Shown: one piece after another, positions 931 through 19,747 of the stretch | Layout: each line of letters starts with the position of its first letter | How positions within the stretch are numbered: the first letter of the stretch is position 1 | From: an uncultured virus (IMG/VR IMGVR_UViG_3300010998_000493) | Lineage: Duplodnaviria; Heunggongvirae; Uroviricota; Caudoviricetes | Strand: one strand, 5' to 3' | Virus record (IMG/VR): IMGVR_UViG_3300010998_000493 | DNA length: 64,000 nt | Made by a program: the position numbers and the translations under genes | The notes under the pieces: generated by a model | Database searches by the model: none | The model's input: the letters and a program-made list of their open reading frames with translations, nothing else | What the model was told of the DNA's origin: nothing

Positions 931-1145
931 ATTTGGAAATCAATCAGAGTAACCTTTATCTGCTCCTGCCATCAAAGGTGGCATGGATGGCCGAATGGCT
1001 TACAGAAGACAAAAATATCAGCATCGTTGAGGCGATAAAGATGATATACTCTTCCGATATGTACAAACGACTGGAAGATGAATCCACAAAAATGTGGCAC
1101 CTAGGACCGGTAGCACTATACCAAGAGCTGGTTGCCAATATATAA
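927..1145 (+). CDS. DUF3791-like small protein
   Basis: YSSDMYKRLEDESTKMWHLGP pattern; coupled to DUF3990 gene. Confidence 0.7.
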   Translation: MNLEINQSNLYLLLPSKVAWMAEWLTEDKNISIVEAIKMIYSSDMYKRLEDESTKMWHLGPVALYQELVANI

Positions 1146-1224
1146 ATTGATGTCAATTGTATACCATAAGAGCGATGTATGCTTACTTCTTACTATATTA
1201 AACAGGAAGTTAGATAAATAATAT

Positions 1225-1605: not shown

Positions 1606-1628
1606 CATATATTAGGCATATCAGGCGC

Positions 1629-2714: not shown

Positions 2715-2716
2715 CT

Positions 2717-3580
2717 ATGGAACCAGAGAAGATAAACCATCCCTACCTCACGGCCATCAAGCGCACGGATTTCTCTGTGCCGACGCGATACCTCATGCAG
2801 CACAATCTGCTGAAGGGTAAAATACTCGATTTTGGATGCGGATTTGGTTTCGATACGGACGAACTCAAGAAACAGGGCTTTGACATTATCGGCTACGATT
2901 ACTACTACCGCCCGGACTTCCCTGAGGGCAAGTTCGACACCATCTTCTGCAACTATGTGCTGAACGTCTTGGAACCCTACGCCCAGGCCGAGGTGTTGAT
3001 GAATGTCGCCAACCTGCTTTCCCCCAAGGGTACGGCTTACTTTGCGGTACGGCGTGACCTGACGGAAGAGGGTTTCCGGCTCCACGCCATCCACAAGCAA
3101 TACACGTACCAATGCAACGTGAAATTGCCGTACAAGAGCCTCGTCAGCAATAAAAGCTACGAACTCTACCAATACAACCATTTCAATAAGCTTCCGCGCG
3201 TGGAAAGCGAGAAATGCCCATTTTGCCGTCTTTCCCGTCGGGTGGAAATCATCTGCGAGACGGCCACTTGTGTTGCATTCTATGACGGCTATCCTGTCTC
3301 CCCTGGGCATGCTTTGATTATACCCAAACGCCACGTAGCATCTTATCGCGATTTAACAAACCACGAAAAAGAGGCAATGATTGTGGTACAAGAATATGTC
3401 ATGAAGAAGATTGACGAGCGTTTTCACCCCGACGGCTACAACGTCGGCATTAATATTGGCAAGGCAGCGGGGCAATCGGTATTCCATTGCCACATGCACG
3501 TTATCCCCCGATACAAGGGCGACGTTCCCAATCCCAAAGGCGGGGTGCGTGGTGTGATTCCGAACAAACAAATGTATTAA
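2717..3580 (+). CDS. SAM-dependent methyltransferase fused to HIT nucleotide hydrolase
   Basis: ILDFGCGFG SAM motif and YVLNV; C-terminal CPFC..GHALIIPKRH..HCHMHVIPR histidine triad. Confidence 0.9.
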   Translation: MEPEKINHPYLTAIKRTDFSVPTRYLMQHNLLKGKILDFGCGFGFDTDELKKQGFDIIGYDYYYRPDFPEGKFDTIFCNYVLNVLEPYAQAEVLMNVANLLSPKGTAYFAVRRDLTEEGFRLHAIHKQYTYQCNVKLPYKSLVSNKSYELYQYNHFNKLPRVESEKCPFCRLSRRVEIICETATCVAFYDGYPVSPGHALIIPKRHVASYRDLTNHEKEAMIVVQEYVMKKIDERFHPDGYNVGINIGKAAGQSVFHCHMHVIPRYKGDVPNPKGGVRGVIPNKQMY

Positions 3581-3590
3581 TTCTAAATAA

Positions 3591-4643
3591 TTGTATTATA
3601 TGGGAAATCCAACATTACAATTGGCTGGGCAACTGTTACCCAACGGCTGGTATGTGAAAGAATTAATCTCTGAGCGTGAGAATGGCTCAGGAGGAAACTT
3701 TTCGGTTCAATACGTTGTAGAAAAAGAAGGAAAAGTCTTTTTCCTTAAAGCTATTGATATTTATAAGACACTTGTAGACATACCGCTTGACAAATTTACA
3801 TTAAAACTAAATGAACAATTATCTTTATACAATTTTGAAAAGCAACTATTAATGTATTGCAAGGATCATCATACATCAAAAATAGCATTAATTATTGATA
3901 GTGGTGAAATCAGATTACCCCAAGAAACGATACCAGTTCCTTATTTAATCTTTGAAATGGCAAGTGGGAATGCTAGAGATTTTGTTAGATTTTCTGATGA
4001 CTCTGATTTCGTTTGGAAAATGCAGTCTTTACACGACATAGCAGTAGGATTAATGCAATTACATAAAATCGGTATATCTCATCAAGATGTAAAACCTTCA
4101 AATATATTGGTGTTTAATAATTCGAATTCTAAATTAACTGATTTAGGAAGAAGTAAATGTACAGCATTTAATGGTCCTTTCGACTCTTTTGTTTTTTCTG
4201 GTGATATAACTTATGCCCCAATTGAGATTTTCTCAGAGTTTTCTTTTTTAACTACGGGCGCTATATATAATAAGGATTATGCAATTGATTTATATTTATT
4301 AGGTAATCTTATGACGTACTATTTAACAGGGTTAAACATGTCCGCTTTGATAAAGAAGCATTTGATTCCTTATGGATTTAGCCCTAAATTAGATGAAATG
4401 CGATCATTTGTTCTTAAAGCTTTTAATGAATCTGCAGAAGATGTTAGACTTTCCATATATTATGAAGAATTTAAAGAACCATTAATGGAAATAGTAACAA
4501 GTCTTTGTTGTCCTTTTCCAGATAAAAGAGGAGAAGTCGGGAATAATAAAAAATATACATTGGAGAGAATAGTCTCGAAATTAGATTGTTTAAGAGTAAA
4601 AGCAGAATATAATTTTAAGAAATATGGCTATATTAAGCGATAG
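3591..4643 (+). CDS. Hanks-type Ser/Thr protein kinase (ATG start probably 3600)
   Basis: GSGGNFS loop, LKA lysine, HQDVKPSNIL catalytic loop, DLG; AT-rich. Confidence 0.9.
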   Translation: MYYMGNPTLQLAGQLLPNGWYVKELISERENGSGGNFSVQYVVEKEGKVFFLKAIDIYKTLVDIPLDKFTLKLNEQLSLYNFEKQLLMYCKDHHTSKIALIIDSGEIRLPQETIPVPYLIFEMASGNARDFVRFSDDSDFVWKMQSLHDIAVGLMQLHKIGISHQDVKPSNILVFNNSNSKLTDLGRSKCTAFNGPFDSFVFSGDITYAPIEIFSEFSFLTTGAIYNKDYAIDLYLLGNLMTYYLTGLNMSALIKKHLIPYGFSPKLDEMRSFVLKAFNESAEDVRLSIYYEEFKEPLMEIVTSLCCPFPDKRGEVGNNKKYTLERIVSKLDCLRVKAEYNFKKYGYIKR

Positions 4644-6108
4644 AAATGAACGAAAAGTTATTCCAGTGTGGAATACTGTCAAATATAGCACAGAAGAATG
4701 TAGAGTCTTAACTAACATTAGTCTAGTGAAATATGATATATCAAAAAGCATCAAGGCATGGAATGAGAATCATCGTATTTCATATGCAGGTGACTTGATA
4801 TCTTCTGCAATAATATGTAACAATTTGGAAGACCCTGCTATCTTGGAAGCAGCAGATTACATCATTCAAAGCGAGGAAGAGGTTCCTGTTCCACTTATAG
4901 ATACTTGTAGAGAGTTACTGTCCCTGCCCACATTAAACCATGATAATTTATCATCAATTAAAGCTATTGCAAAACTTAAAATGTGGTTGATTAAATATCC
5001 AAGTGACGCTATAGCACATATTGAAATTGCACGGCTCTATTTGGTTTTAGGACAAATAGAAAAAGCAGAGAACCATATTAAATATGCCCTTTATATTGAC
5101 AGTAACAACAGGTATGTTGTAAGATGTGCTTGTAGGTTTTATATCCATATAAATCAAATAGGCCTAGCTATGCAGGTTATTAAGAAAAGTTCTTTATTAA
5201 AAGGTGACCCATGGCTTTTAGCTTCAGAAATTGCTGTTAATCAAGTGCTAGGTAAATCCTCTAAATACCTAAAAAGAGGTAAGGAAATTATAGATTCCAG
5301 GAGTTATCAACTTAGTGACATTACTGAACTCGCAAGCGCTATCGCTACTGAAGAATTTTTGTTTGGGAATATCAAAAAAAGTAAGAAGTTATTTAATACG
5401 TCACTTATTTCTCCTAATAGTAATAGCTTGGCTCAAGCTCAATGGTTTGTATCCAAAGAAAAGATTTATTTGGGTATAAAAATACCAAAGAATGACAAAT
5501 TTGATGAGAGCTTAAGTTTAGAATCAATGTATCAGCATAAATTCAAGGATGCACTAGTATACGCTAAGCAATGGATAAAAAAATATCCGTTCTCAACAAG
5601 AGCGATTTCTTTAGGTGACACAATTGCTACATTATTTCTACGTGATTACAAATCTAGTGAAACTATTTTGAGAGACGCAATGAAAACCCATCAACAGAAT
5701 GCATGGTTAGCTAATAATTTAGCTTATGCATTAGCACTTGACGGTCGAGTAGAAGAAGCAGAAATGGAAATAAATAAGGTTAACAAAAAATATTATAGAC
5801 CATCTTTAGCTACAGATATTTGTATTCAAGCGACAAAAGGTTTAATAGAATTTAAAAAGAAGAATATAGAAACTGGTATAGCATTGTATCATGAAGCCAT
5901 ACAATCAGCAAAATCGTTAAATGATTCTCAATTAGTTTATTCTGCTTTGTTAAATTTCTCACGTGAATTATTGACAATTGATTCATCATATGAAAAAAAG
6001 ACTATTGTCAAACAAATTATGTCTAGTATTCCTGAGATAGCAGACATGAATCCCCTATATAGCATATGGATGGATGTTAAGAATTTGCTAGAAACAGAAA
6101 AGAAATGA
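4624..6108 (+). CDS. Tetratricopeptide-repeat protein
   Basis: AHIEIARLYLVLGQIEKAE and NNLAYALALDGRVEEAE TPR-like helices; overlaps the kinase stop. Confidence 0.8.
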   Translation: MAILSDRNERKVIPVWNTVKYSTEECRVLTNISLVKYDISKSIKAWNENHRISYAGDLISSAIICNNLEDPAILEAADYIIQSEEEVPVPLIDTCRELLSLPTLNHDNLSSIKAIAKLKMWLIKYPSDAIAHIEIARLYLVLGQIEKAENHIKYALYIDSNNRYVVRCACRFYIHINQIGLAMQVIKKSSLLKGDPWLLASEIAVNQVLGKSSKYLKRGKEIIDSRSYQLSDITELASAIATEEFLFGNIKKSKKLFNTSLISPNSNSLAQAQWFVSKEKIYLGIKIPKNDKFDESLSLESMYQHKFKDALVYAKQWIKKYPFSTRAISLGDTIATLFLRDYKSSETILRDAMKTHQQNAWLANNLAYALALDGRVEEAEMEINKVNKKYYRPSLATDICIQATKGLIEFKKKNIETGIALYHEAIQSAKSLNDSQLVYSALLNFSRELLTIDSSYEKKTIVKQIMSSIPEIADMNPLYSIWMDVKNLLETEKK

Positions 6109-6150: not shown

Positions 6151-6960
6151 TTATGATGTCGTAAACGTCTGTAATAGCAAGAAATACAATTTGCTTCCGA
6201 ATTTAATTTCGTGAGCAAAATCTATCATATTAGATTTAGCCAGAGAAGATTCACTTCCCTGGCTTTTCTTTTGGCTTGCTGTTCTCAAAATGTTCGTGTG
6301 CATAGCTGTACCCTTTAGACTGAACCATGTCATCGTAGCTGGTGATGGTAAGTCTGGATGAAGCTCTCGAACAATATCCTTGGTCATCTGATGCTGGACT
6401 ACAATGGCTCGCAAATCTTCGTTATATGCTTTCAGACGATTCACATTGACAACCTCATAGATGGTGAAGACGGTGAAAATAAGCGTCAAAATGATGTTTA
6501 TCCAGGCATAGACATTACGATACCATTTGTTGCTTGGTTCATAGAATACAATATGGATGTGCTCTTTTATTGTGTACCAAAGGTGTGTAAACTGATCCTT
6601 CAAAGATTTTGGCACATGATTATTATCATCTGGAATGGCGCAAGTTTTCTCGTGAATTGCCTTAAGCATCTCCCTGTTGGAGAGTTCCCCTTTATCGTGC
6701 AATTCCTTGATATAGGCATCTTCCTGTTCTTGGTTATAGATCCCCAAACCTTTATAGAGGAGAATGACCTTCTCACGGAACTCTTCTTCTGTCTTGAAAT
6801 GCAGGCCTTTGACCTGAATGTTCACTTTGGGCACAACTGGTTTGCATGGTTCTTTTTGTAAAGCTCCGATTGCAGCAGTCAGATTATCAAGTTTGGTGCA
6901 TATGTCATCGAGTGACATCACGGGTTCGTCCTTTAATGGAGTAGGTTTATTCTTTGCCAT
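6151..6960 (-). CDS. Membrane-anchored mobilization-region protein (possible frameshift near 6350)
   Basis: Directly follows the relaxase; one hydrophobic segment WINIILTLIFTVFTIY. Confidence 0.55.
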   Translation of the reverse strand: MAKNKPTPLKDEPVMSLDDICTKLDNLTAAIGALQKEPCKPVVPKVNIQVKGLHFKTEEEFREKVILLYKGLGIYNQEQEDAYIKELHDKGELSNREMLKAIHEKTCAIPDDNNHVPKSLKDQFTHLWYTIKEHIHIVFYEPSNKWYRNVYAWINIILTLIFTVFTIYEVVNVNRLKAYNEDLRAIVVQHQMTKDIVRELHPDLPSPATMTWFSLKGTAMHTNILRTASQKKSQGSESSLAKSNMIDFAHEIKFGSKLYFLLLQTFTTS

Positions 6961-6962
6961 AG

Positions 6963-8033
6963 TTATCTTCCTTTTCTGCGATATGTTTTACGATTCTTGT
7001 TCTTATACTTTTCATCATCGTCATCATCTCTCCATCCACCAGATGAACTTCCACCGCCAGATGGCGTGGGTGCTACATGAGGTTGCAACAGAACTTCTGC
7101 AATGGCGGATCCTATGCCGTTACCAGATGAAGAGCTGTCTTCATGGTCATTTGTGTGAGTGAAGTCGAAGGCATCTTCTATTCCAGAGGCTGATGTGTCT
7201 TGACCGTATTCCTCGGTAATATGGGTAATATGAGTAATATACTCTTGTTCGTGATGCGGATATAAATATGGTTGGTCATTCGGATCATCGTTGATTTGGT
7301 AGATATCGTACATCTGCCTGTCGATGTTGCCGAATGTCAGCGAACGGTCAATCTTTCCACCTGCGAAAGTGACTTCATGCTTGTTATCTGTGAAGGTCAC
7401 CCCACGTACGCTGCCATCGCTGTTGCGGACGAAATCCAGCGAAATTCCTTTTTCTGACAAAGCCTTTCGGAGCTGCTGCCAAGTGATGCAGTCCTTCAAG
7501 ACTGCGGTGATGGTGTCATAGAGGTGGTACTTGATGGCATCCTTTCCCGTAAGGCGGTCGCGTCGGACGTTCTTCTTGCCCTTGCCAAAGGTTAGTCCAT
7601 ACTTTCTGGTCAAAGCCTTGGTGATGGCTGCCGACTTGGAAAAGCTGCAGTCACCTTTGATGATATTACCATCATTATCGACTCGGTTATAAACGATGTG
7701 AACGTGAGGGTGTGGCTGGTCCTGATGCCTGAAGATGACATATTGCGTATTGATGATGCCCATCCTTCGCATATATTCTTGAGCAATCTTTGCCATCAGC
7801 TCATTATCCACCTTGTCTTTATCCTCAGGAGAAAAACTGAGCGATATATGACCAACGAAATCCTTCACACCAGAGTGGGTCTTTGCCTGTACTTTGAAAC
7901 TGGCAGTGATGGCTGCATTGGATGCGAGGCTTACTCCATCGGATGCCACAACCACCGCATCTTTCTTCTCGATGTCGTTGGCATAGTTGACTAAGCCACC
8001 AAAATTATTTCCGGGATGTATCTTTGCTATCAT
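6963..8033 (-). CDS. Relaxase/mobilization nuclease (MOB-P type)
   Basis: MIAKI..G..F.GLVNY, HISLSF, H.D..HPHVHIVYNRVD HUH motif. Confidence 0.92.
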   Translation of the reverse strand: MIAKIHPGNNFGGLVNYANDIEKKDAVVVASDGVSLASNAAITASFKVQAKTHSGVKDFVGHISLSFSPEDKDKVDNELMAKIAQEYMRRMGIINTQYVIFRHQDQPHPHVHIVYNRVDNDGNIIKGDCSFSKSAAITKALTRKYGLTFGKGKKNVRRDRLTGKDAIKYHLYDTITAVLKDCITWQQLRKALSEKGISLDFVRNSDGSVRGVTFTDNKHEVTFAGGKIDRSLTFGNIDRQMYDIYQINDDPNDQPYLYPHHEQEYITHITHITEEYGQDTSASGIEDAFDFTHTNDHEDSSSSGNGIGSAIAEVLLQPHVAPTPSGGGSSSGGWRDDDDDEKYKNKNRKTYRRKGR

Positions 8034-8036
8034 AGT

Positions 8037-8393
8037 TTATCTTTCACTTATTCGTATTATTACTTCATTGATTTCATTTGCCAGATGCTGCACACGCTCT
8101 TCCATTTGGGAGAAATGATGGATGTGTGCCTCATGTGCAAGCTGATTCAGGTTATTCGCCATGCCAGCCAATGAGCGAAGCAGAGAAGCTTCCTCTTTGG
8201 ATATGGGTTCCTTGATATAACCGTTGACAGCCAACTCGTAAACCAACGTGGAGAGAGACATGCCTGTACGCCTTCGCTTGTTCAACAGTTTCTTGTAACT
8301 TTGTTCATCGAAATATACTTTTACAGGAAAAAGGCGTTTCTCACTTTCTGGTTTCTTCGGGCGACCGCCTTTGTTTGGTGTTTGGGGGTGCAT
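8037..8393 (-). CDS. mobC: MobC relaxosome accessory protein
   Basis: GGRPKK..LAGMANNLNQLAH motif; start at 8393 chosen so the gene clears the oriT. Confidence 0.85.
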   Translation of the reverse strand: MHPQTPNKGGRPKKPESEKRLFPVKVYFDEQSYKKLLNKRRRTGMSLSTLVYELAVNGYIKEPISKEEASLLRSLAGMANNLNQLAHEAHIHHFSQMEERVQHLANEINEVIIRISER

Positions 8394-8445
8394 AGTTATA
8401 AAATGGCTATGTGGATATTTGGTATTTTCGGCTTTTTTGAGCCGT

Positions 8446-8475
8446 GGTTTTGTGGGACGCAAAACCTATACTTGC
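8446..8475. other. Putative oriT (inverted repeat plus nic-like site)
   Basis: GGTTTTG(8446-8452)/CAAAACC(8460-8466) immediately followed by TATACTTGC, upstream of mobC. Confidence 0.55.
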
Positions 8476-8747
8476 TCCCCCAAACACTATAAAAACCACC
8501 CTTTGGGTTATTGTATAGGGAAGAGCTGCTACGCCGTAATGTGCAGGAGCGTAGTCGACCTGGCTGCCCATGATTTGATGCTACTTTTTCCATGCTTTTG
8601 AGTCCTTTTTTTATTGGCAGATAAGAATTTCCTTTTTTGCGTGGGTAAATAATTATTTGATGAAATGTTGAATATTGTTGAGGGAAACAGGAGCCATAAT
8701 TGCTTATAGCAAAGTCTTTTAGGCTCTTTAGTCAACAATTCAACAAA

Positions 8748-9950
8748 TCAACAGCGCAATTGCTCCAAGAAATCCCGCTGGACGGTGTAATACCTGCCAG
8801 TTCGTTGAACAGCCATATAATTGGAGGCATCGTTGTAGTCGATATTATAGGTAGTGTAACGGTAAGCATTGTCTGCAGGCTTCAGTTTCCAACGTTCCTT
8901 CAGCACCTTCAAGATTTGCCACTTCTCAATCTTTACATGAGTATTCATCAGGAGAGTATGGATGTCATTCGGGCAGAAGGAAAACTGGGTAAGGTTGTGT
9001 CTTTCCATCACGTCCAGACAAAGCTCCACCATATCCAGTTCGGCACGAGGTCGGTTGTGCCGGATGATATTGTCAAGAGCTTCCGTATGAATAAGTTTCG
9101 GATTGAACCACATGCGACTCTCGCAGCAGGTTGACAGCTTTCGGTTTCTTAGGCGGCGGATGAAAGCAGGCATCTCATACTTAATGGTGCTGAGGATGTA
9201 TGGATCGTCATTAATCAGAGGTGGCACCTTGCGCACCCAATAACGTGTTTCTTCGGGGTCAATGACAAGAGGGAATGTTTCGTTGTTGGAACACAAGACA
9301 AACTTGGCGAAGAACTCCACTTCCGACCTGTCCTTCCCCTTTGCCTCCACCTTGTAGGTACGGGCCGTGCTCAGATTCTTTAGCCTTTCTGAGTCTTCTC
9401 GACGGCTAAGCAACACTTCATCCACCATGATGAGCAGTTTCCCAGCCCAGTCTGCATTGAACTGGCTTCGGAAATCCTCATTGGTATTGAATGTGGCATT
9501 ATCCTGAAACAACAGTTTGAGAAAATTGAGGAATGTGGTCTTACCCGTGTTGCGTTCTGTAGAGACCAACAGAAGGATAGGCAGTTTCTGAGTGGGTTCT
9601 TTATATAACAGTTGCAGATAGTCCATCCCTAAATCATATTGCTCATCAAAGATGTGATTGATCAATCCTAAGGTGGTCGTGCAATGCTCTTCCCAGGTCT
9701 CCCCGTGACGAAGCGGCTGGTATAGGTTTAGAAACGACCCCACTTCTTTTTGGTAGTTTGTATGAGAGGGGACAGTACAGAAACCGTCGTAACGTGGAAT
9801 GTCGGCAATAAACTTCTTCCCATAGTCTTGACGGAGGGCCTCGAGAGTCCATGGGATATACTTCTTGACAACAGAACCATCAAGAAGAGGTTGCTCTACC
9901 CACTTGTAATAAGTAGAGCCCACACGGATGAATGCATCTTTCTTATCCAT
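8748..9950 (-). CDS. Primase-associated P-loop helicase (VirE/DUF5906-like)
   Basis: Walker A RNTGKTT, Walker B IMVDE, CSNN, RYWVRK. Confidence 0.85.
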   Translation of the reverse strand: MDKKDAFIRVGSTYYKWVEQPLLDGSVVKKYIPWTLEALRQDYGKKFIADIPRYDGFCTVPSHTNYQKEVGSFLNLYQPLRHGETWEEHCTTTLGLINHIFDEQYDLGMDYLQLLYKEPTQKLPILLLVSTERNTGKTTFLNFLKLLFQDNATFNTNEDFRSQFNADWAGKLLIMVDEVLLSRREDSERLKNLSTARTYKVEAKGKDRSEVEFFAKFVLCSNNETFPLVIDPEETRYWVRKVPPLINDDPYILSTIKYEMPAFIRRLRNRKLSTCCESRMWFNPKLIHTEALDNIIRHNRPRAELDMVELCLDVMERHNLTQFSFCPNDIHTLLMNTHVKIEKWQILKVLKERWKLKPADNAYRYTTYNIDYNDASNYMAVQRTGRYYTVQRDFLEQLRC

Positions 9951-9952
9951 AA

Positions 9953-10273
9953 TCAGAAATGTCTTAGCTTAATGGAGCCTGCTTCCTTAGCCAGCGAAAG
10001 TGCCATGTCTGCATCTACGATTATCTTGCGTCCAATTTGCGTAATGGCAGCATCTATGATGCCACTGCGCTTGATGCGGTTTGCGGTAGGCACACTACAC
10101 CCAAACACCTGGGCAATGCCCTCAATTCCATAATAGGTTCGTTTCTGAACGATTGGGGTTGTTTCACTCCTCTTTGCCTCCATGCTGCTTCCAATCAAGA
10201 AGGTCAGTTCTTCGCCAGTCATCATAGCGATGGGCTTCTGGAGGAGTTGCTTGATGTCGAAATTCTTTTCCAT
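9953..10273 (-). CDS. DUF3853-like excisionase/HTH protein
   Basis: YGIEGIAQVFGCSVPTANRIKRSGIIDAAITQIGRKIIVD. Confidence 0.85.
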   Translation of the reverse strand: MEKNFDIKQLLQKPIAMMTGEELTFLIGSSMEAKRSETTPIVQKRTYYGIEGIAQVFGCSVPTANRIKRSGIIDAAITQIGRKIIVDADMALSLAKEAGSIKLRHF

Positions 10274-10378
10274 GACTATTTTTGAATTTAATTGTTCAAC
10301 GTTTGAGGCATACTGAGCCTCGTTTACATTCTCTGAAATCGATTTCGACGGCAAAGGTAATGGGTAATAGAAAAGCAA

Positions 10379-10415
10379 TCGGTCGGCTTTATTTGTAAGA
10401 AATAAAACCGACCGA
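10379..10415. terminator. Inverted repeat (terminator or regulatory site)
   Basis: TCGGTCGG-CTTTATTT...AAATAAAA-CCGACCGA between genes. Confidence 0.5.
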
Positions 10416-10447
10416 CTTTTAACAAATGAAAAGAGAAAATGGGCTTG

Positions 10448-11719
10448 TCAGGCTGTTTGGGCAAAGATGTGAGTCCAATTATCCATGATGCGCTTGGCTC
10501 GTTTATAGCTGCTCCCATAGGGGTCAAGGCTGAATGATGACGATTTCAATTCCCCATATCGTTTTTGGGGAATGTCATACCCTATCTTTCGCCCACAGAA
10601 TAGTTCTATGGCACGATGGAAAGTCATGTAGGAAAGAGAATCACTCACCTTTCCTGTTCTGACTAAAGAACGCAACAAATAGGCAAGACAGATGTCATCC
10701 GTATTTTCTGCCAGAAAGTGGTGTATCTGCTTTTTCAGAACAGGCACATTACCAATGAGTATCTCATCCAGTGTGCGGATAGTCTTCTTCTTTCCTCTTT
10801 TCCCTTTTGTCTTGTGCAGCAGGAACAAGACATCTTTCCATATTTCGGGATTGCAGTCCTCCACGGCACTCTCCCAAGATGCCTTGGTCTCTGCTCCCAG
10901 TTCCATACTTTGATGAACAAGCATATGGACACAATTACGAATGAGAACCAGCCCACTTTCATCCATTTCTTCTTTCATCAGGATGCTATTGAGAATCTTC
11001 ATCATACGAAGCAGTCCGTGGTCGATAATCACGAAATAGTACATACAATAAGCCAAGGCGTCACCATCTTCAACCACCTTATCATATAGATTTGCAAGGA
11101 AACCTGGGATGAACACAGCCTGAGCCAAAGTAAAAATGTTAGCAAAGAAGGCAAGGGCTTGATAGAACTGTTTGCGTTCCAGTTTGCAGAACAACAAGCA
11201 TCCCTTGGAACTTCGCAGCAGCTTGTCCGTCTGGCTTATAAAATGAGACTTCATGTATTGCGGCAATCTGTTCCAAATTTCCAAAGGAGTTCCAGACCGA
11301 ACCATCAGCAGCCCTTTCTGTTGAGACGTATAGATGTCCACCTTACCTGTTTTCAGATTGATACCTAACCATAACTGACGGTTGACCATACATTGAGCTA
11401 TCTTTTCGGTATATTCGCCAGCCCATTGTTTATCTGCACTTATCAAGTGCATTCGGGCAGGATTCTGAGAAACCAAATCGTAGAACCAGGTATAGAAAGC
11501 TTGGGCTTCAGGTGGAACACAAGTCTTCATCAGCGAGTACATGTCAAAGAGCACCGATAGGTCACCGGTTTCAATACGGTCAATCCGTTTCTTGAAATCT
11601 GCATACTCTTTCTTGTTTTTCAACTTCCAAGTGCAAATAAACATATCTGTCTTTTCCTTTCTCAAAGAAAAGTCGGGGAGAATCTTTGAAAAGTTCAACT
11701 TAAACATATTGCCAAGCAT
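10448..11719 (-). CDS. Conserved hypothetical protein of Bacteroidales integrative elements
   Basis: 423 aa ORF coupled to the integrase stop. Confidence 0.7.
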   Translation of the reverse strand: MLGNMFKLNFSKILPDFSLRKEKTDMFICTWKLKNKKEYADFKKRIDRIETGDLSVLFDMYSLMKTCVPPEAQAFYTWFYDLVSQNPARMHLISADKQWAGEYTEKIAQCMVNRQLWLGINLKTGKVDIYTSQQKGLLMVRSGTPLEIWNRLPQYMKSHFISQTDKLLRSSKGCLLFCKLERKQFYQALAFFANIFTLAQAVFIPGFLANLYDKVVEDGDALAYCMYYFVIIDHGLLRMMKILNSILMKEEMDESGLVLIRNCVHMLVHQSMELGAETKASWESAVEDCNPEIWKDVLFLLHKTKGKRGKKKTIRTLDEILIGNVPVLKKQIHHFLAENTDDICLAYLLRSLVRTGKVSDSLSYMTFHRAIELFCGRKIGYDIPQKRYGELKSSSFSLDPYGSSYKRAKRIMDNWTHIFAQTA

Positions 11720-13218
11720 TAGTCGTTTGACTTCTTGATGGTTTCCAAAAGGCGAACAAGATCGGCCTCTGACAAATCTGACAGTTCTGCAAGCAGCTTG
11801 TCTCGCTTTGAGAACCCAGTTTCTATGTCCAACAGTTTGGAGTTATATTCCATCTGTTTCTCCAAAGGATAAGAGTCAAGATAGATTTGTGTAATGGCAT
11901 GACTGCCTGAAGAATGCCCCATGCTTTCAGAGATATACTCCATCTCCACGCCAGCATTGCGGAGATTGGTTGCAAAAGAATGACGACACCAAGTTCCCGA
12001 AGGACGGATGGATTCATCCCAGTGAAGAGCCTCATAACATATCTTGATAACTCGGTCTTGAACATTAGAGTTCTCTTGCTGCGTCCTCATCCTGCGGTCT
12101 CTTTCACTCTCCGCACCATTGAGAATCTGAGGAAATACATATCCATCGCGTGTGGGAGGTGCTGCAATTTCATCGAGAATCTTCTGTAAAGGCTCGATGA
12201 TGGGGATGATGACTTCTGAACCATCCGCACTGTTTCTTGCAGTCTTCTTCCTATTGAAACGGAAAGCCTTGCCCCCGTTCTGGAAGTAATAAGTGTCATA
12301 CTTCAATCGTGCTGCATCAGCCATGTTGAAGCCATTGCAGAGGTACTGCACCAAGAAAAGCCCCAAAGAATAATGAGCCATCTTCGTGTAGTGTTCGCTC
12401 CAAGTCTCTGGATATTGCTTTGAAAGAAAAAGGTTGTAAAGCTCCGTCATCTGGCTGACACGAAGATAGTATTTGCGTCTCTTTCCACTTGTTGGGATGC
12501 TGACGAGTCCTTTTTCTTTCCTGTTGGAAAAGGGATAAGGTACATCTTTAAGATAGCCTTCTCGAAGGCAGGTATTCCATACGGCACGACAGGCACGGAG
12601 ATAAATGCCAGCCGTCGTGTCCCTTATCTTGCCAACGATTTTTCCTTTCTTTTTTACACCATCCCGCATACCATCCTTCCACTTCTGAATCTCTGCAGCA
12701 CTAATCTTGAAGCCTTCAATGGAATTTTCACCCATGATCTTGCGGAAAGACTTCAAAGCGCTTATATAACTCTCACTGGTTGTATAGCGGATACCGTTGT
12801 CATCTGTTTTGAGGTGATAGATGATTTCCTCCCAGATGCCAAAAAAGGAGCGGTTTTCTTTCTCTTCGGCTGTAGCTTTACCTGTTGTCACAGCCACCCG
12901 AACCATCTCAAAAGTCAAGAGCCCTCCCTTGTTAACAGCCTGCAATAAGTTTTTGTACTTAGGGACAATGGTCTCTCGCCACATCCGCTGCTCCTTATAT
13001 TTCTCTGAGGAACTTTTTGTGGCATTGCAGATGTCTGAAAACTTCTTCTCGGAGTATGACCCACCGACAGGATGATAGAAGAACTTACGATCGATGGTAA
13101 AGCGAAGCGAAAGAGGGAATTCTGTCGCATTGTGCCGTTGCGTACGGCGGTCAAGAACTAAGGAGGCGGTACAGTTACGCTCCTTGATGACGGGAAATGA
13201 TTTTGTCAATGTTGCCAT
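11719..13218 (-). CDS. Tyrosine recombinase/integrase
   Basis: Arm-binding N-terminus (FPLSLRFTIDRK), R.KT, RHSFAT, MGHS..TQIY catalytic Tyr. Confidence 0.93.
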   Translation of the reverse strand: MATLTKSFPVIKERNCTASLVLDRRTQRHNATEFPLSLRFTIDRKFFYHPVGGSYSEKKFSDICNATKSSSEKYKEQRMWRETIVPKYKNLLQAVNKGGLLTFEMVRVAVTTGKATAEEKENRSFFGIWEEIIYHLKTDDNGIRYTTSESYISALKSFRKIMGENSIEGFKISAAEIQKWKDGMRDGVKKKGKIVGKIRDTTAGIYLRACRAVWNTCLREGYLKDVPYPFSNRKEKGLVSIPTSGKRRKYYLRVSQMTELYNLFLSKQYPETWSEHYTKMAHYSLGLFLVQYLCNGFNMADAARLKYDTYYFQNGGKAFRFNRKKTARNSADGSEVIIPIIEPLQKILDEIAAPPTRDGYVFPQILNGAESERDRRMRTQQENSNVQDRVIKICYEALHWDESIRPSGTWCRHSFATNLRNAGVEMEYISESMGHSSGSHAITQIYLDSYPLEKQMEYNSKLLDIETGFSKRDKLLAELSDLSEADLVRLLETIKKSND

Positions 13219-13258: not shown

Positions 13259-13514
13259 TGTCCCTGCGTGACGAGAAGTGTATATACGCAAGAACCGCTA
13301 TACACATTTACCCTTATAGAGTAAAAATGTATAGCGGGACACAATCATTTGGCATTCCTGATGCTATATGGGAGTGGGAGGTCGGCTGGTCACTCTCCTC
13401 AGGTAGCCTTTTACTGCCGATATCCAAGATGTGTCAACAGACCTTTTGCATCCTGGCCTCTCAACAGAGTTGACCCTTCGCATGAAACACCTTTTGGTTT
13501 CGCCCGCAAAGTTA
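13259..13514 (-). promoter_or_regulatory. Integrase promoter and ~290 nt structured leader
   Basis: TAACTTTG on minus strand at 13507-13514; long hairpin CCGCTATAC...GTATAGCGG at 13295-13337. Confidence 0.55.
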
Positions 13515-13698
13515 CGAAGATTCTGTGAATCTCACAAAGAATTACAGGATATTAACATCAAAGAATGAGATAAACAATAAATTTGCATGCAATTTACTGA
13601 TAAGAACGGCAAAAATCGATGAGTTGGCCTTTATGGGCAATCTTTTTTATACACTCTGTGTATAAGCAAAATGGACTCTAAAAATAGTCTCGAAAAGT

Positions 13699-13730
13699 TT
13701 TGGCTAATCGTTTGGAAACATGTACCTTTG
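13699..13730 (+). promoter_or_regulatory. Bacteroidetes primary-sigma promoter
   Basis: TTTG (13699-13702), 20 nt spacer, TACCTTTG (13723-13730). Confidence 0.8.
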
Positions 13731-13732
13731 CA

Positions 13733-14243
13733 GCCAATTATAGGTTGGCCTATAGTTCCCGTAGGGGCAGGGCAAGCTAACTGTAGCCTTGTTGGTCGGG
13801 AACATCCATTTGGTATGAGCCGTAAGGCGAATACGTTAGAGGCGAACTCCTGAGAGACGTGAAAGCAGAAGTTAAGCGATGCGAGTAATGTCGTTAGTGT
13901 AGGGACGGAACCCAGGAATGAAAAAACAGACTTACCACCTGTCTTCTCCCATTCCCGTTTACTGGATTGGCAAGAATACTTTCTTGCGTTAGTTTTCAAG
14001 CCTTCGGAAGATGCTCCGGAGCAAAGAGTAAAGTAAACCCAGGCATACCTGGAAGGAATGTTAAACCATTAATGCGTTTTCACGCAGAGAGGAGATTTTA
14101 TGCACACCATTAAAACATTAAACAGGTAAGAGCGCGCTCGCAGTGACTTTTACGCATGTATAGTGACTCGAGTTAGTCGCTCTATTATCCATTCCTTATC
14201 TTTTCGGCAGAAAAGGTGAGGCTTAATGGCGTATTGCCATAAG
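13733..14243 (+). ncRNA. Candidate large, multi-branched structured ncRNA (family unknown)
   Basis: Consensus promoter directly upstream; at least five nested long-range helices plus many local hairpins; no credible ORF. Confidence 0.65.
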
Positions 14244-14282
14244 TATAATCTATCAAGAAAACGATTTATAAGCAAAGAGACA

Positions 14283-14600
14283 ATGATAACGAAAGAAGAA
14301 TTTGTGAACTCTCTGAATAAACTGAAAGAGCAAAGTGACATAGACCATCAATTCAATTATCACATGGAGCAGGCATTTCCAGGCAGCTATGCACCATTAT
14401 ATCATAATGTATTGTGGGAATTGAGCGTGCACCTCCTTGAACTATCTGTAAAGGATGATGAAAAATACGTTTCATGGTGGATATTTGAGACAGACTTCGG
14501 CAAGAGAGATATTGTAAACTCCCTAAGAGTGAATGACAAGCCTGTTGATGTAAGCACCCCAGAGAAACTATACGATTTCCTAGTTGAACCCATTAAATGA
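14283..14600 (+). CDS. Hypothetical protein (phage-like)
   Basis: MITKEEF..YVSWWIFETDFG..TPEKLYDFL; ATG 14283 has A-rich context. Confidence 0.75.
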   Translation: MITKEEFVNSLNKLKEQSDIDHQFNYHMEQAFPGSYAPLYHNVLWELSVHLLELSVKDDEKYVSWWIFETDFGKRDIVNSLRVNDKPVDVSTPEKLYDFLVEPIK

Positions 14601-15478
14601 AAAGAACAATGAAGATTGACATAAAGAAAAAAGGAAATGAACTACTATATCAAGAGGCTTTAATCTGGATGGGCTATCGGTATGCTATTGGTCTTACGGA
14701 AGGAAGCAAGGCCATTCAGGAATATAAACAGTTCAGAGACATCGAATACGACACTCCTGAATTTCATGCTTTAGCCGCAGAGATCTCCAATTATCTGCGC
14801 CGAAAGAAGATAAAAGACGTTGTTGACCTTCGAAACCGTCTTGTAGAAAATGACTTGCAATGGTACTCTGTCCATTACGCTTTGGGAAGACATAGCTATG
14901 CTTCGGTGCACTGTCACGACATTGCACAATATGGGCGAGAGGTGCTGGATAACAACAGAAAAGAGTTTATGGCCTTTGACATTCGTAGGGAAATATCAGA
15001 ACGCCTGAAATGGAGCCTGAATTTTCATCAGCCGATTGGTTCAGAGGACCGACTTAACCCGATAGAAATGCTCATGAACTTTCTCAAAGAACATTCCGTT
15101 ACGAGTGCTAATGAAATTGCACGTTATAAATGGATTGAGGTTTCTGAGGAACAGGATGGAACTATTTCATTCCACACAAAGTTAGCCGAGGATGAAACTG
15201 GGAGCACAAGCTACTTGTCTTTCTCTTCTACCATAGACGATCTTTTGGGATGGAATGATTTGGCCTCTTACTTCGACCCTAAATGCCATAAGCATTGCAA
15301 GGTGAGATATAATAACGAGGAGAAAATAATAGAGTATTTTGACTCCTGGCATCGATGCTCATATCAAGAAGGAGTATTCCCATATCAAAAAGTAAAAATT
15401 GCTATTGAGACTTATGAAAAGAATCCTTCTCGATATTGCTATATTTGTGAAGAGTATGTTATAGAAGATGATATTTGA
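14597..15478 (+). CDS. Hypothetical protein
   Basis: 293 aa, translationally coupled; internal repeat RYAIG / HYALGRHSYA. Confidence 0.75.
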   Translation: MKRTMKIDIKKKGNELLYQEALIWMGYRYAIGLTEGSKAIQEYKQFRDIEYDTPEFHALAAEISNYLRRKKIKDVVDLRNRLVENDLQWYSVHYALGRHSYASVHCHDIAQYGREVLDNNRKEFMAFDIRREISERLKWSLNFHQPIGSEDRLNPIEMLMNFLKEHSVTSANEIARYKWIEVSEEQDGTISFHTKLAEDETGSTSYLSFSSTIDDLLGWNDLASYFDPKCHKHCKVRYNNEEKIIEYFDSWHRCSYQEGVFPYQKVKIAIETYEKNPSRYCYICEEYVIEDDI

Positions 15479-15498
15479 ATAAACAAACAAGAAACAAT

Positions 15499-17076
15499 AT
15501 GGATTACAAAATAATACAACCCATCATAAGCAGAGTTCTCCAAAGTGGTCACGACGGAGAATTCTATGTGGATAAGAATTCGTTCGCCTTGGTAAAGGAA
15601 ATACAAAAGGCGCTCTCCATCTTTGAGCCTATTGAAGATGACGAGGCTCGCATGATTTGGCTGGAAATACCTCGTGGTACTGCTGAAGAATGGAAAGATT
15701 TCGAAGATATGCACGATCAATATGTAGAAAGCGACATCGCGAGTTACAGGAAAGCATTGGCCGAGGAGTTTCCATACGAGAAACGATGGCTCTTCCTCGT
15801 TACTTCAACCTATCGTGAGAACACTTTCCTGAAAATATCTGACAGGGTTCATGAGTATGTGATATTCACCAACAGGAATCTTGATGGAAAGGAATATGCT
15901 CACGATATGAGTTGGTTCTTGGAGCCACTTCTCCATCTCGTCAAACAACGAGTAGCAGAAATAACAAGGAATCCAGAGGCATACAATCAGCATATTGATG
16001 AAGATCTACCTTATCGGCAACGCTTTGGAACAATAAAGAGTCGGTTTCTCAACAAGATAATTCCAGAGGGGAAGCTGGTGGTGAAAGACCAAGAATATTG
16101 CATCCAAGTTATGAAGGAACTGATTCGAAGAGAAAAGGTGTACGCATCGGTCAAGGAAGGAGAAGAAGTCGATTGGGAAAAGGAGGGAGTGCCTGCTCCT
16201 TTCGACACGATATCTATCCGTCGTTTCTGTAAGTACTATCGCATTGCAGATACAATCTTCTGGAAAGATTCCCACTATGAACGTGCAAAGGAAGCTGTCA
16301 GTATCGAAGACGATGTGGAATACTATCAGGATCATGGCCTACATAATGCGCTGAAGGACTATAACCTGGAAAGTGAAGAAGACTTTAAAAGCTTTGCATG
16401 TGACCACTATGGGGAACTTGGCCTGTCAAGGACTAACGTTCGGACCTCCCAATACTATGCTGGCGGCAAGTGGATATTCACTCTGGGAGTGAGCTATTCG
16501 TCTTATGTGGACAAGGCTCTTGAGATTGCGGTGGCTCTTTATGAGTCGGGAGCTCCGTTCGTGTTCCATGATGCTGAGAACCTCCTTCACATTCTCGAAG
16601 AAACCGGAACGGTTCGTATCTCGGCGTTCACTTTCCACGACTATCTGAAGGGTGATGACGATGAAGGTGTCATCAGTGTGCCTTATATAGAAGACTGCGA
16701 TAAGGAGGGAGAGCTGACTCGCCAGCAGTATGATGATATCGTACGCTATGCAGAATGGGAACCTAACGACAAAGTAGCGATAGATAAACATATTCCATTG
16801 GACGACCCAGTCTATCATCTGATACGTGATGAGGTAAACGAGTCTATTACGCTTAGCGAAATCCGGAAGCGGATAGAGAAGAAATATGACTGCTATCTTG
16901 GGGTTGCACAAAAGAGCGGATATTCAGGCTATTATCATGTAGGAGCCTTGAGGAACAGACAAATGTCTGCTGGGATTGAGGACATATATTATCCAACTTT
17001 CAACGAGGCGATGAAGGCGCTTATACTAAGCATAAAGGTTTTAGAACAATATACAAACGATAATAGAACAGAGTAA
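15499..17076 (+). CDS. Hypothetical protein
   Basis: Long acidic ORF within the operon. Confidence 0.75.
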   Translation: MDYKIIQPIISRVLQSGHDGEFYVDKNSFALVKEIQKALSIFEPIEDDEARMIWLEIPRGTAEEWKDFEDMHDQYVESDIASYRKALAEEFPYEKRWLFLVTSTYRENTFLKISDRVHEYVIFTNRNLDGKEYAHDMSWFLEPLLHLVKQRVAEITRNPEAYNQHIDEDLPYRQRFGTIKSRFLNKIIPEGKLVVKDQEYCIQVMKELIRREKVYASVKEGEEVDWEKEGVPAPFDTISIRRFCKYYRIADTIFWKDSHYERAKEAVSIEDDVEYYQDHGLHNALKDYNLESEEDFKSFACDHYGELGLSRTNVRTSQYYAGGKWIFTLGVSYSSYVDKALEIAVALYESGAPFVFHDAENLLHILEETGTVRISAFTFHDYLKGDDDEGVISVPYIEDCDKEGELTRQQYDDIVRYAEWEPNDKVAIDKHIPLDDPVYHLIRDEVNESITLSEIRKRIEKKYDCYLGVAQKSGYSGYYHVGALRNRQMSAGIEDIYYPTFNEAMKALILSIKVLEQYTNDNRTE

Positions 17077-17078
17077 AT

Positions 17079-17657
17079 ATGGGAATAGATATAAGTTTTC
17101 ACATAGAGGTGCGCCACAGAAACGAGTGGCGGCCTCTTATATGGCAAATGCCAATAGAATTGAAGTCACACAAAGACGAAAAAGACGAAGGCAAGGAGTG
17201 GTTCACCAACAGCTGTTGCTACTGGTGCCGGTATTACCATTTCCGTGACTTTCTAGATGATTATGGGAGTGTGGGGTTGCCTGACGATGTGAGCCCCCAA
17301 ATGAAGACAGAACTATCTGACTATGAGATGGGACAGGGCTATTTCATGTTGTCAGATCTTAGTAATTTCTGCGAGCAGCAAGAGAAGGACTTGCTTGTAA
17401 GGCTTTTTCAATCACGTGACTATCAGATTACCAAACAACTGAACCGCATAGAGAGGTTTTTGAAGCAAGAGTCTACAACAAAGGATGAATCTGATGGGAT
17501 TGGTTATGAAGGAATGGGCATCAAGGAAATCTACGAAGACTTCCAGGATGAGTATTGGTATTACCAAAGCCTTCATCTTTCTGTGAGAGGATTCCTAAGA
17601 GGAGCCAAGGCTTCTGTGAACGACAAGGATGTCAGGGTTTTATATGGAGTATGGTAA
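17079..17657 (+). CDS. Hypothetical protein (phage-like)
   Basis: MGIDISFHIEV..GLPDDVS..DVRVLY pattern. Confidence 0.75.
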   Translation: MGIDISFHIEVRHRNEWRPLIWQMPIELKSHKDEKDEGKEWFTNSCCYWCRYYHFRDFLDDYGSVGLPDDVSPQMKTELSDYEMGQGYFMLSDLSNFCEQQEKDLLVRLFQSRDYQITKQLNRIERFLKQESTTKDESDGIGYEGMGIKEIYEDFQDEYWYYQSLHLSVRGFLRGAKASVNDKDVRVLYGVW

Positions 17658-17675
17658 ACATTAAACAAAAGAACA

Positions 17676-18443
17676 ATGAAGATACAATACATGAGTGACC
17701 TGCATATGGAGTTCGCAGAGAACAGCAGGTACATAAAGCATAATGAGTTTCCTGTAACAGGAGACGTGCTCGTATTGGCAGGTGATACATTCTATCTGAA
17801 CAATACGGTTGCTCCACTCAGTAAGTTCTGGAAGTGGGCATCGGCTAACTACCGTCATGTGCTGATAGTCCCAGGCAACCATGAGTATTACCAGTTTTGT
17901 GATGTTATGGAGCGTGGTCTACAATGGAAATGGATGTTCAAAGACAATGTGGGCATCTATCAGAATCAGGTAGTTCGGATTGACAACACTGATTTCGTCC
18001 TGAGTACGTTGTGGTCAAACATTCCTGCACAGGATGAGTATTTCGTGTGGAAAGGGTTGAACGATTTTCGTCAAACTAAATACAAAGGAAAGCTCATCCA
18101 GGTGAATGAGTATAACCAACTGCATCAGTTCTGTTTGGACTTCGTCAGGAAAAGCGTGGTGGAGAGTACGGCTAAAAAGATAGTCGTGGTGACCCACCAC
18201 TTGCCTACTCGGCAGGTGGTGGCACCACAGCATTTGGACTCGCTCATCAATAGTGCCTTCGCTACGGAACTGGGTGACTTCATTGCCAACAGCCGTATCA
18301 ATGTATGGATATATGGCCACTCCCATACCAATATAGATGCTACCATTGGCAAGACTAGAATAGTCAGCAACCAATTGGGGTATGTCTTCAATAATGAGCA
18401 TCTTTTGAACGGATTTGATGCAGGAAAGTATGTTGAACTATAA
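17676..18443 (+). CDS. Calcineurin-like metallophosphoesterase
   Basis: SDLH, LAGD, PGNHEYY, THH, GHSH motifs. Confidence 0.92.
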   Translation: MKIQYMSDLHMEFAENSRYIKHNEFPVTGDVLVLAGDTFYLNNTVAPLSKFWKWASANYRHVLIVPGNHEYYQFCDVMERGLQWKWMFKDNVGIYQNQVVRIDNTDFVLSTLWSNIPAQDEYFVWKGLNDFRQTKYKGKLIQVNEYNQLHQFCLDFVRKSVVESTAKKIVVVTHHLPTRQVVAPQHLDSLINSAFATELGDFIANSRINVWIYGHSHTNIDATIGKTRIVSNQLGYVFNNEHLLNGFDAGKYVEL

Positions 18444-18455
18444 AAAGTTAAGAAC

Positions 18456-19202
18456 ATGAAACAAAAAGATAACAAACCGATATTGTTGATTATACCAGAC
18501 ATACATGGGCGTTTGTTCTGGATATCAGCCACAAGGAAGTATCCTGACTTGCCAGTGATTTTTCTTGGAGATTATCTGGACCCATATACACATTATGAGG
18601 AAATCCTGCCAAGTGAGGCTCTTGCGAATTTCAAGGAAATCCTGGATTTCAAGAAAGCTAATAGGGAAAGGGTTACTCTGCTTTTGGGTAATCACGACAT
18701 CCATTACTTTGATAAGGACATGAACAGCAGTCGTAAAGACAAAGAACGTTATGAAGAGATTCATCAAGTCTTTATTGAGAACTTGCCCTTGTTCAAACTG
18801 GCGATGACAATAAAGACCGCAGGGAAAGATTTCCTCTTCACTCATGCCGGTGTAGATATAGATTGGCTAAAGTATAGAATGCCAGAGGTCAACCCGAATG
18901 ATGTGCATGACATCTGCAAATCTCTCAATGACAAATTGATGACAGAAGAGAATCTTTATGATTTTGTTTTCAATGGCCTGATGGATGTGTCTGCATCGCG
19001 CTGGGGCTATGCTCGATATCCCTCACCAGTGTGGACGGATGAAACGGACCATCAATACATGAGAGAGCGATTGCCCAATGTCTATCAAGTCTTTGGGCAT
19101 ACCCAACAGGAATCGGAACCTGTCATCACAGAGCAATATGCATGCTTGGATTGTCGAAGGGCCTTTTTGCTAACAAGCAAAGGAAACATCATTAATGCAT
19201 AG
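18456..19202 (+). CDS. Calcineurin-like metallophosphoesterase
   Basis: PDIHG, GDYLD, GNHD, THAG, GHT motifs. Confidence 0.92.
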   Translation: MKQKDNKPILLIIPDIHGRLFWISATRKYPDLPVIFLGDYLDPYTHYEEILPSEALANFKEILDFKKANRERVTLLLGNHDIHYFDKDMNSSRKDKERYEEIHQVFIENLPLFKLAMTIKTAGKDFLFTHAGVDIDWLKYRMPEVNPNDVHDICKSLNDKLMTEENLYDFVFNGLMDVSASRWGYARYPSPVWTDETDHQYMRERLPNVYQVFGHTQQESEPVITEQYACLDCRRAFLLTSKGNIINA

Positions 19203-19390: not shown

Positions 19391-19747
19391 ATGGAAAAGA
19401 AGAAGGAAGAAAATACAGAAAAGGAGGAACTGACTCTTCAGAATGTTCCTAAAGCAGTTAATTATCTAATCAATGAGATTGCGGAGATGAGGGCCGTTTT
19501 AGAGCATATAGAATCTCAGCTAGGCCTCGGAGTTGACAAACACCGACCGATTGATGAAGAGAGAGCAGCAGAAATCCTGGGACAAACCAAAAATGTAATC
19601 AAGAAAATGGTTCGTGCCAGAGAAATCCCTTATTATGACAAAGGTAGGAAAGTATACTTCTTTGAAGATGAACTTGTGAAATGGGTCGAGGAATCAAGAG
19701 TGAAAACTTGGAGTGAGGAATACAAAAAGAACAAACGACTTTACTGA
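19391..19747 (+). CDS. Excisionase-like HTH_17 DNA-binding protein
   Basis: AAEILG..REIPYYDKGRKVYFFEDELVKW. Confidence 0.85.
   Translation: MEKKKEENTEKEELTLQNVPKAVNYLINEIAEMRAVLEHIESQLGLGVDKHRPIDEERAAEILGQTKNVIKKMVRAREIPYYDKGRKVYFFEDELVKWVEESRVKTWSEEYKKNKRLY

Follow-up and report, generated by a model that had tools for sequence, protein, structure and literature searches.

The window, which is the whole 64,000-nucleotide stretch of DNA that we analysed, belongs to the record of an uncultured virus. We focused on approximately 1,060 bases, without a credible gene, between a minus-strand integrase gene (11719–13218) and the ATG (14283) of the first long open reading frame (ORF) in a plus-strand operon. 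The features are given below, with the basis of each assignment in brackets. Type A refers to the window's own kind of leader, and types B and C to two other kinds that share one motif with it.

6151–13218, minus strand: mobilizable-element module encoding a relaxase, a DUF5906 primase, a DUF6043 protein and the tyrosine integrase at 11719–13218 (Pfam).
13507–13538, minus strand: divergent Bacteroidetes-type promoter-like site facing the integrase gene (pattern match).
13648–13664, no strand assigned: operator-like inverted repeat TATACAC-N3-GTGTATA, ~50 nt upstream of the promoter (comparison of loci).
13699–13730, plus strand: Bacteroidetes-type promoter with −33 TTTG and −7 TAccTTTG, hence TTTG-N20-TAccTTTG (pattern match).
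13733–13749, plus strand: variable 5′-terminal hairpin GCCAA/TTGGC (one compensatory change, to GCTAA/TTAGC, in L006).
13750–13915, plus strand: 5′ domain with hairpin elements at 13756–13803, 13813–13835 and 13851–13898, and a weak GGG/CCC hairpin (RNAalifold).
13914–13955, plus strand: shared motif comprising a GGAATG/CATTCC closing helix, an A-run, a 4-bp hairpin ACAG/CTGT with loop ACUUACCAC and a CU tract, CUUCUCC (three leader types).
13957–14052, plus strand: inserted hairpin cluster closed by GTTTACT/AGTAAAC, then the hairpin CCAGG/CCTGG (alignment, RNAalifold).
14073–14095, plus strand: hairpin TGCGT/ACGCA, then a Shine-Dalgarno-like purine tract, GAGAGGAGA, complementary to the CU tract (sequence).
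14100–14129, plus strand: nine-codon upstream ORF (MH[TI]IKT...) ending with TAA (kept in type A).
14129–14240, plus strand: 3′ hairpins, namely a long imperfect one at 14129–14183, one of 12 bp at 14194–14221 and one at 14226–14240 (stems invariant or with one-sided changes; loops vary).
14283–19202, plus strand: operon encoding proteins of 105 aa (phrog_28377), 293 aa, 533 aa and 192 aa and two metallophosphoesterases, at 17676–18443 and 18456–19202 (ORFs, family search).
3′ of the operon: an HTH_17 gene at 19391–19747, then a 466-aa ORF.

Our leading, though tentative, reading is that ~13735–14282 forms the 5′ leader, transcribed but non-coding and structured, of an accessory operon carried by a Bacteroidales integrative mobilizable element. 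An earlier, sequence-only reading had already placed an RNA at the head of an operon of unknown proteins and two metallophosphoesterases, and the position of the leader and the gene content bear this out. The 105-, 293-, 533- and 192-aa proteins are of no known family. Neither the 293-aa nor the 533-aa protein has a sequence match in the PDB. An AlphaFold model of the 293-aa protein has a pLDDT of 78; in fold searches with this model the best Foldseek E value was 0.22 and the best VIA Z score was 8.2, which is within the stated noise.

The relaxase of the neighbouring module is of the MobA/VirD2 type. In Phocaeicola oris, the same module and a MobC/NikA gene flank the RNA operon. Since integrase, primase and relaxase genes lie beside the RNA here and also in Phocaeicola oris, the operon is accessory to an integrative mobilizable element. 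At L010, a relaxase gene lies directly ahead of a type B leader. We also considered an early prophage operon. This was rejected because the integrase belongs to the relaxase-bearing mobilizable element. To the left of the relaxase, 445–6108 encodes a DUF3990 protein, an HNH endonuclease, a methyltransferase-HIT fusion, a protein kinase and a TPR protein; this cluster may be defence-like cargo.

Separate from the mobilizable element, the window carries a Mu-like transposable prophage at 22281–57000. The prophage encodes a CI-like S24 repressor, a 684-aa rve transposase, a MuB-like AAA ATPase, Gam, Mu F and Mu portal proteins, a tape measure protein and a lysozyme. The Mu F-like head protein (31307–32542, minus strand) ends in a CdiA_C toxin-type domain (Pfam E 7.7e-8), an unusual fusion. 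The tail region (48438–55230) encodes a 1984-aa protein with BspA-type leucine-rich repeats and CotH kinase-like and laminin-G-like domains, then a 305-aa leucine-rich repeat protein. The nearest virus record, G001, corresponds to this prophage part of the window and, for that reason, lacks the RNA.

The absence of a credible ORF from ~550 nt of the region, as first described, held up: family matches were lacking, frames were broken and codon-phase counts were even. Small ORFs on both strands of the leader region have no Pfam or PHROG match. A minus-strand gene at 13631–13999 was a candidate and was rejected. It has no family match, its 112-codon open frame is broken in 4 of 15 relatives and codon phases are even. 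Consistent with this, the 49 substitutions that separate the 5′ domains of the window and L106 are spread 17/15/17 over the three codon phases.

Covariance-model searches with Rfam 15 gave no match at the gathering score in the whole window. Over 13400–14500 there was none at E ≤ 10, and the models included ROOL, GOLLD, OLE, RNase P, tmRNA, riboswitches and introns. ARAGORN identified no tRNA or tmRNA. The RNA had not been recognised as RNase P, tmRNA or an intron, and these searches agree. In the accessible portions of the literature searched, PMC5737381 included, we found no description of the leader RNA, though one may have been published. Hence, the leader RNA, which is ~520 bases long and modular, matches no catalogued RNA family, and we do not regard it as a member of any described one.

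Relatives of the leader are few. A blastn search of phage and plasmid collections with the leader RNA returned no match, and viral-contig scans with the 293-aa and 533-aa proteins, used singly, returned nothing. Proteins 67–90% identical to those of the 533-aa and 293-aa genes occur in ENA and Logan assemblies. An alignment of relatives of the 533-aa protein led to 78 loci in species-representative genomes and a further 10 in viral contigs. Among these, the RNA occurs only in Phocaeicola oris, where it is 96% identical. With nhmmer, the leader RNA had L006 as its sole match among 92 loci; it is missing from the other 86 loci encoding the 533-aa family. In the phage records L001–L004, which encode proteins distantly related to those of 105 aa and 533 aa, the upstream sequence shows no similarity. 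Separately, four stretches of 1.1–1.4 kb lie upstream of RNA-less 533-aa homologues (L008 2505–3699, L009 2769–3835, L017 3319–4501 and L019 2814–4224). These have no plus-strand ORF of at least 70 aa in a list made for the plus strand alone, and may hold minus-strand genes or other non-coding elements.

In a BLAST search of 401 Bacteroidales genomes, we found one full-length copy (Phocaeicola oris) and, elsewhere, one 47-nt match. The latter is to the shared motif and sits in the ~130-nt 5′ UTR of a metallophosphoesterase gene. The short motif is also present at two loci encoding the 533-aa family, L010 and L026. A degenerate pattern of the motif recovered 37 stretches from a metagenome collection. 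These were sorted by eye into 15 of type A, 14 of type B (the L010 kind), 2 of type C (the short-UTR kind) and 6 chance matches; the last six and L102 were discarded by eye as coding signal peptides and the like. The overall tally is 17 loci for type A and 16 for type B, plus 4 type C places. A model of the motif (R1), searched against 90 sources, found only the window (E 4e-9; next best E 0.16). A covariance model of the 5′ domain (R2), searched against 99 sources, also found only the window, and the domain is not in types B or C. Viral-contig scans gave no match to a pattern of the 5′ domain and three unrelated stretches for the operator pattern. We conclude that the range of the leader RNA is narrow, namely mobile elements of rumen and gut Bacteroidales.

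Type B leaders (L010 2409–2833 and 15 similar loci) have the operator and promoter layout of type A, and an RNA of ~290 nt. Directly ahead of the motif, this RNA has a strong intrinsic-terminator hairpin with a U-run. Genes for an RNA ligase and a metallophosphoesterase follow; the gene after the ligase in a type B locus is 74% identical to one of the window's metallophosphoesterases. The type B alignment has only 2 compensatory pairs. At one type B locus, L129, a recombination joint falls within the leader, such that the 5′ half is unrelated and the terminator hairpin and motif are retained. Upstream of a type C leader, L094 (1100–1460) has a ~14-nt word in triplicate, along with recurring ATTACGACCGTCC-like words. 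These direct repeats are possibly iterons or operator sites.

A promoter had been proposed ahead of the region, and there is one; the form kept in relatives is the Bacteroidetes type at 13699–13730. The pattern has 5 matches in the window versus 1.97 expected. In 17 of 17 type A loci the −7 box is at a fixed distance from the motif, even where flanks have diverged. A sigma-70-like match at 13727–13756 scored only 9/12. Among type A loci, the operator-like repeat upstream is found at 16 of 17; among those of type B, it is found at 12 of 16, and two of the remaining four are too short upstream.

In the type A alignment, sequence is near constant from the promoter to ~14253, the 3′ edge of the conserved block, and in several loci both flanks are unalignable. 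Between the window and L106, L121 and L134, positions 13914–14253 are 96% identical. In the same comparison, the adjoining ~293-aa gene is 59% identical as DNA and 48% as protein. The genes 3′ of the block also differ: sets encode 105 aa, 292 aa and 533 aa, or 167 aa and 298 aa, or the 292-aa protein directly. Hence, the alignment shows the RNA to be kept far more strictly than the adjacent genes.

Conservation so far above that of neighbouring genes could have two other meanings. The main rival of control in cis is a stable, trans-acting, structured non-coding RNA of a new class, processed or terminated from the leader. This might form a ribonucleoprotein with the ~293-aa protein, or serve the mobile element in immunity or regulation, much as leader-derived phage RNAs do. 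We consider it unlikely, though a serious contender. A partnership would suit the presence of the ~293-aa family downstream of the RNA in 14 of the 15 loci with more than 500 nt of downstream sequence. However, the modelled 293-aa protein has no apparent nucleic-acid-binding or other recognisable fold, and the RNA is absent from the 86 loci noted above. Alternatively, conservation could be at the level of DNA. The block would then serve as a recombination boundary or 'linker' for module swapping, or else as a cluster of sites bound by proteins, with RNA structure a mere by-product. Sharp mosaic boundaries that coincide with the block ends, the joint inside the L129 leader and the conserved operator-like repeat all point this way. 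Even so, we think this explanation very improbable, given how the region folds.

On the plus strand, 13733–14243 has a minimum free energy of −160.6 kcal/mol (z −3.5), which none of 100 shuffles equalled; the opposite strand has a z of only −2.1. Covariation was assessed in the 15 distinct sequences of type A that remained after omission of an identical copy and a truncated locus. The RNAalifold consensus has 137 pairs, and 99.2% of cells are paired. Across the whole structure, 7 pairs and 18 cells are compensatory. Shuffled alignments reached 7 pairs in 6 of 500 cases and 18 cells in 0 of 500, and controls with partners slid by 1–3 columns had 0–5 compensatory pairs. Many G-U pairs are invariant. 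These fit the plus strand only and so agree with plus-strand transcription. Strand preference of the fold and of the G-U pairs, compensatory changes that maintain helices in a diverged 5′ domain, and RNA-library contigs on the region (below) all argue against a purely DNA-level cause.

Six of the seven compensatory pairs fall in the 5′ domain. Analysed alone, this domain has 39 RNAalifold pairs, 7 with compensatory changes. It is 70–71% identical in L106 and L136, with structure retained. All of its compensatory changes come from L106, L112 and L136, and hence from one or two lineages; the 5′-terminal GCCAA/TTGGC hairpin is missing from the same three loci. Covariation of the 5′ domain is thus real but thin. 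The 3′ two-thirds of the RNA hardly vary, so helices there are neither supported nor refuted, except for CCAGG/CCTGG and several stems with variable loops. For CCAGG/CCTGG, a G-C pair is replaced by A-U in 3 of 15 sequences; the other stems of the 13957–14052 cluster are invariant.

These data separate the parts of the fold originally drawn. The local hairpins exist; support extends to several of them, with compensatory changes in GTTCCC/GGGAAC, GCC-loop-GGC and CCAGG/CCTGG. In the 12-bp hairpin at 14194–14221, as proposed, the stem is retained while the loop varies. The GCC-GTAA-GGC stem has compensatory changes, but its supposed GNRA loop is not kept (GTAA, GTAT, TTTG, GAAAA). The long-range nest, five helices deep, fared worst: its 35 pairs have 0 compensatory changes. 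One pair of AGGAATG/CATTCCT fails to form in 8 of the 15 sequences. In CTTACC/GGTAAG, the sixth pair forms only in the window (1/15). Of two TGT/ACA pairs tested, one forms only in the window (1/15) and the other in 8/15. The three inner nested helices never vary and so are uninformative. RNAalifold prefers local closure of the motif by GGAATG/CATTCC to the long-range nest. Similarly, the change of ACAG/CTGT to GCTG/CAGC across leader types favours the local hairpin over the pairing with 14122–14130 first suggested. Because GGAATG and CATTCC-like words recur (13915, 13950, 14055 and 14190), mutually exclusive pairings are possible.

Collecting homologs and checking covariation, the course that the sequence-only reading had recommended, therefore supports the 5′ domain and the motif hairpin, and lends nothing to the long-range nest. 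Its suggestion of a new RNA class stands in so far as the RNA is conserved, structured, non-coding and without an Rfam match; an ornate multi-junction fold like that of ROOL, GOLLD or OLE finds no support. With compensatory helices and no coding signal, the region belongs, as a kind, with structured non-coding RNAs or leaders, though few independent lineages were sampled. The element is a composite of a type-specific, covarying 5′ domain, the shared 42-nt motif and invariant 3′ hairpins.

RNA-labelled sequence data bear on both the leader and the stable RNA. Six such runs, from five rumen or gut metatranscriptome studies, contain 39–51% of sampled words of 13700–14300. Contigs of two studies cover 13751–13937, 13913–14104 and 13752–14018, and none lies on the downstream genes (four runs examined). 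The left ends of these RNA-only contigs are ~15–20 nt past the predicted start. Run X15 has one 6-kb contig through the RNA and genes; run X17 covers the genes alone. Assembled contigs say nothing of ends, strand or level, and may stem from carried-over DNA. Hence, they are a weak hint of an abundant 5′ transcript from the leader, not proof. For a stable RNA, it is suggestive that contigs of two studies fall only on 13751–14104 and start within 1 nt of each other. In type B, the strong intrinsic terminator after ~290 nt also makes a discrete small RNA plausible. However, contigs reveal neither the ends nor the levels of an RNA, and one runs on into the genes. In type A, the search for a terminator gave a single weak match, at 13970–13987. 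Finally, an informal comparison by eye found no complementarity between conserved loops of the 5′ domain and downstream targets.

The motif is common to three otherwise unalignable leader types. In each, an A-run leads into a 4-bp hairpin, whose loop reads A(C/U)UUACCAC, and then into a CU tract; after the motif come a short hairpin rich in G and C, a purine tract and an ATG. The inserted cluster at 13957–14052 is not in types B and C, and the GGAATG/CATTCC closing helix is missing from type B. All 9 sequences compared keep the motif hairpin paired, and 2 of its pairs are compensatory (ACAG/CTGT versus GCTG/CAGC); this covariation is a single event, which separates types A and C from type B. 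For each of the three types, the minimum free energy fold has the CU tract base-paired to the purine tract that precedes the first ATG. The RNAalifold consensus of type A or type B does not include this pairing, which is invariant, and hence uninformative, within type A. Shine-Dalgarno pairing is rarely used in Bacteroidetes, so the purine tract may not be a ribosome-binding site.

What the ATG opens differs between types. In types B and C it starts the first gene, which encodes a T4 Rnl2-like RNA ligase (PF09414, PF18043) or a 194–204-aa metallophosphoesterase. In type A, the corresponding ATG opens only the nine-codon ORF. A leader peptide could be responsible for control: the nine-codon ORF, or an ORF from the motif's ATG, would be translated, and the position of the ribosome would open or close downstream structures, as in classical attenuation. 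The nine-codon ORF and purine tract are present in all 16 loci that extend this far, always with nine codons. The same hairpin, purine tract and ATG start a real first gene in types B and C, which have MKN[AT]DLPP in common from the motif ATG. However, codons 7–9 of the upstream ORF vary freely. In type A the motif-ATG frame is different, stops at codon 10 in L108, L120 and L138, and is frameshifted in L130 and L133. Moreover, nucleotides of the hairpin loop are conserved across two reading frames. Since motif-ATG frames differ between types and are interrupted in some loci, conservation is at the nucleotide level, and we regard control by a leader peptide as improbable.

Our best reading, which may well prove wrong, is a modular cis-regulatory leader with a switch that masks a start site. 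Briefly, the leader has four parts: (a) the 5′ domain of three hairpin elements, particular to type A; (b) the 42-nt motif, common to leaders heading RNA-ligase and metallophosphoesterase genes; (c) a hairpin, purine tract and start codon, which in type A opens only the nine-codon upstream ORF; and (d) three 3′ hairpins that reach up to the first long gene. In one state, GGAATG/CATTCC would close the motif around the small hairpin, sequestering the CU tract inside. In the other, the CU tract would base-pair to the purine tract immediately 5′ of the first start codon, masking the initiation region. The balance would be shifted by a factor (a small molecule, an RNA or a protein) able to recognise the invariant loop ACUUACCAC, and operon expression would thereby be set in cis. 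We infer both a switch and an effector; control would be exerted on either translation or transcription. A more specific proposal is that the motif, with loop ACUUACCAC, is the sensor of a new class of RNA switch. On a signal of RNA damage or attack, it would induce RNA-repair-like cargo (metallophosphoesterases and the RNA ligase of T4 Rnl2 type). With its additional 5′ and 3′ domains, the window's version would be a stable regulatory RNA or a ribonucleoprotein partner of the ~293-aa protein. We offer this as speculation that will probably not hold.

Bacteroidales dominate gut and rumen communities and are mostly without Shine-Dalgarno-led initiation. To our knowledge, very few structured regulatory RNAs are known in this order. 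Here, an uncatalogued RNA is near letter-for-letter constant while surrounding genes swap or diverge to 48% identity. Its small motif recurs in leaders of operons for RNA ligases and phosphoesterases that other mobile elements carry. Should the motif prove to be a switch, it would give a lead on what such RNA-repair-like cargo operons are responding to. Since Phocaeicola oris (strain 14-104) is a cultured species whose copy is 96% identical, the leader lends itself to direct tests.

We compared the leader with known systems. Like ROOL, GOLLD and OLE RNAs, it spans several hundred nucleotides with many hairpins, is found on a mobile element and is present in metatranscriptome contigs. Unlike them, it matches no covariance model at E ≤ 10 and has no comparative support for a multi-junction, long-range fold. 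Furthermore, the type A architecture is modular, leader-like and directly abutting a gene, and its distribution is narrow. UG27 systems, according to the accessible parts of the sources, occur in Bacteroidota prophages and pair arrays of ~150-nt non-coding RNAs with two unknown proteins, a small one and a large one; they require a reverse transcriptase of 380–450 aa matching PF00078 (bioRxiv 10.64898/2026.09.22.753630; PMC9226505). As far as those parts go, the likeness is that mobile DNA of gut Bacteroidota carries an extended, structured non-coding region next to two proteins of unknown fold, one small and one large. An informal look at the leader, by contrast, noticed no array of ~150-nt repeat units of the kind those parts describe. 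A UG27-type system was rejected, as none of the 10 + 39 + 2 window ORFs scanned matches PF00078.

Satellite phage P4 provides a further comparison, as its immunity RNA (CI RNA) derives from a leader. In both cases, an integrative element has an operon leader close to the promoter, and this leader may build up even when the genes downstream are not expressed. The window's element, however, is mobilizable, with a relaxase, and not a P4-like satellite, and we identified no processing or complementary target sites. Translational riboswitches and similar leaders, as a general class, mask the ribosome-binding site. The window's leader differs in that the motif matches no known aptamer and its closing helix is not in all three leader types. 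The type A motif is also embedded in a 520-nt leader that has further domains and would, at most, directly control a nine-codon ORF. Nevertheless, a leader that masks its own initiation region, as translational riboswitches do, may serve as the closest working analogy. In common with these, the leader places a compact, conserved and structured element immediately ahead of the first start codon, and the 3′ pyrimidine strand of the motif can alternatively pair with the purine tract before the ATG.
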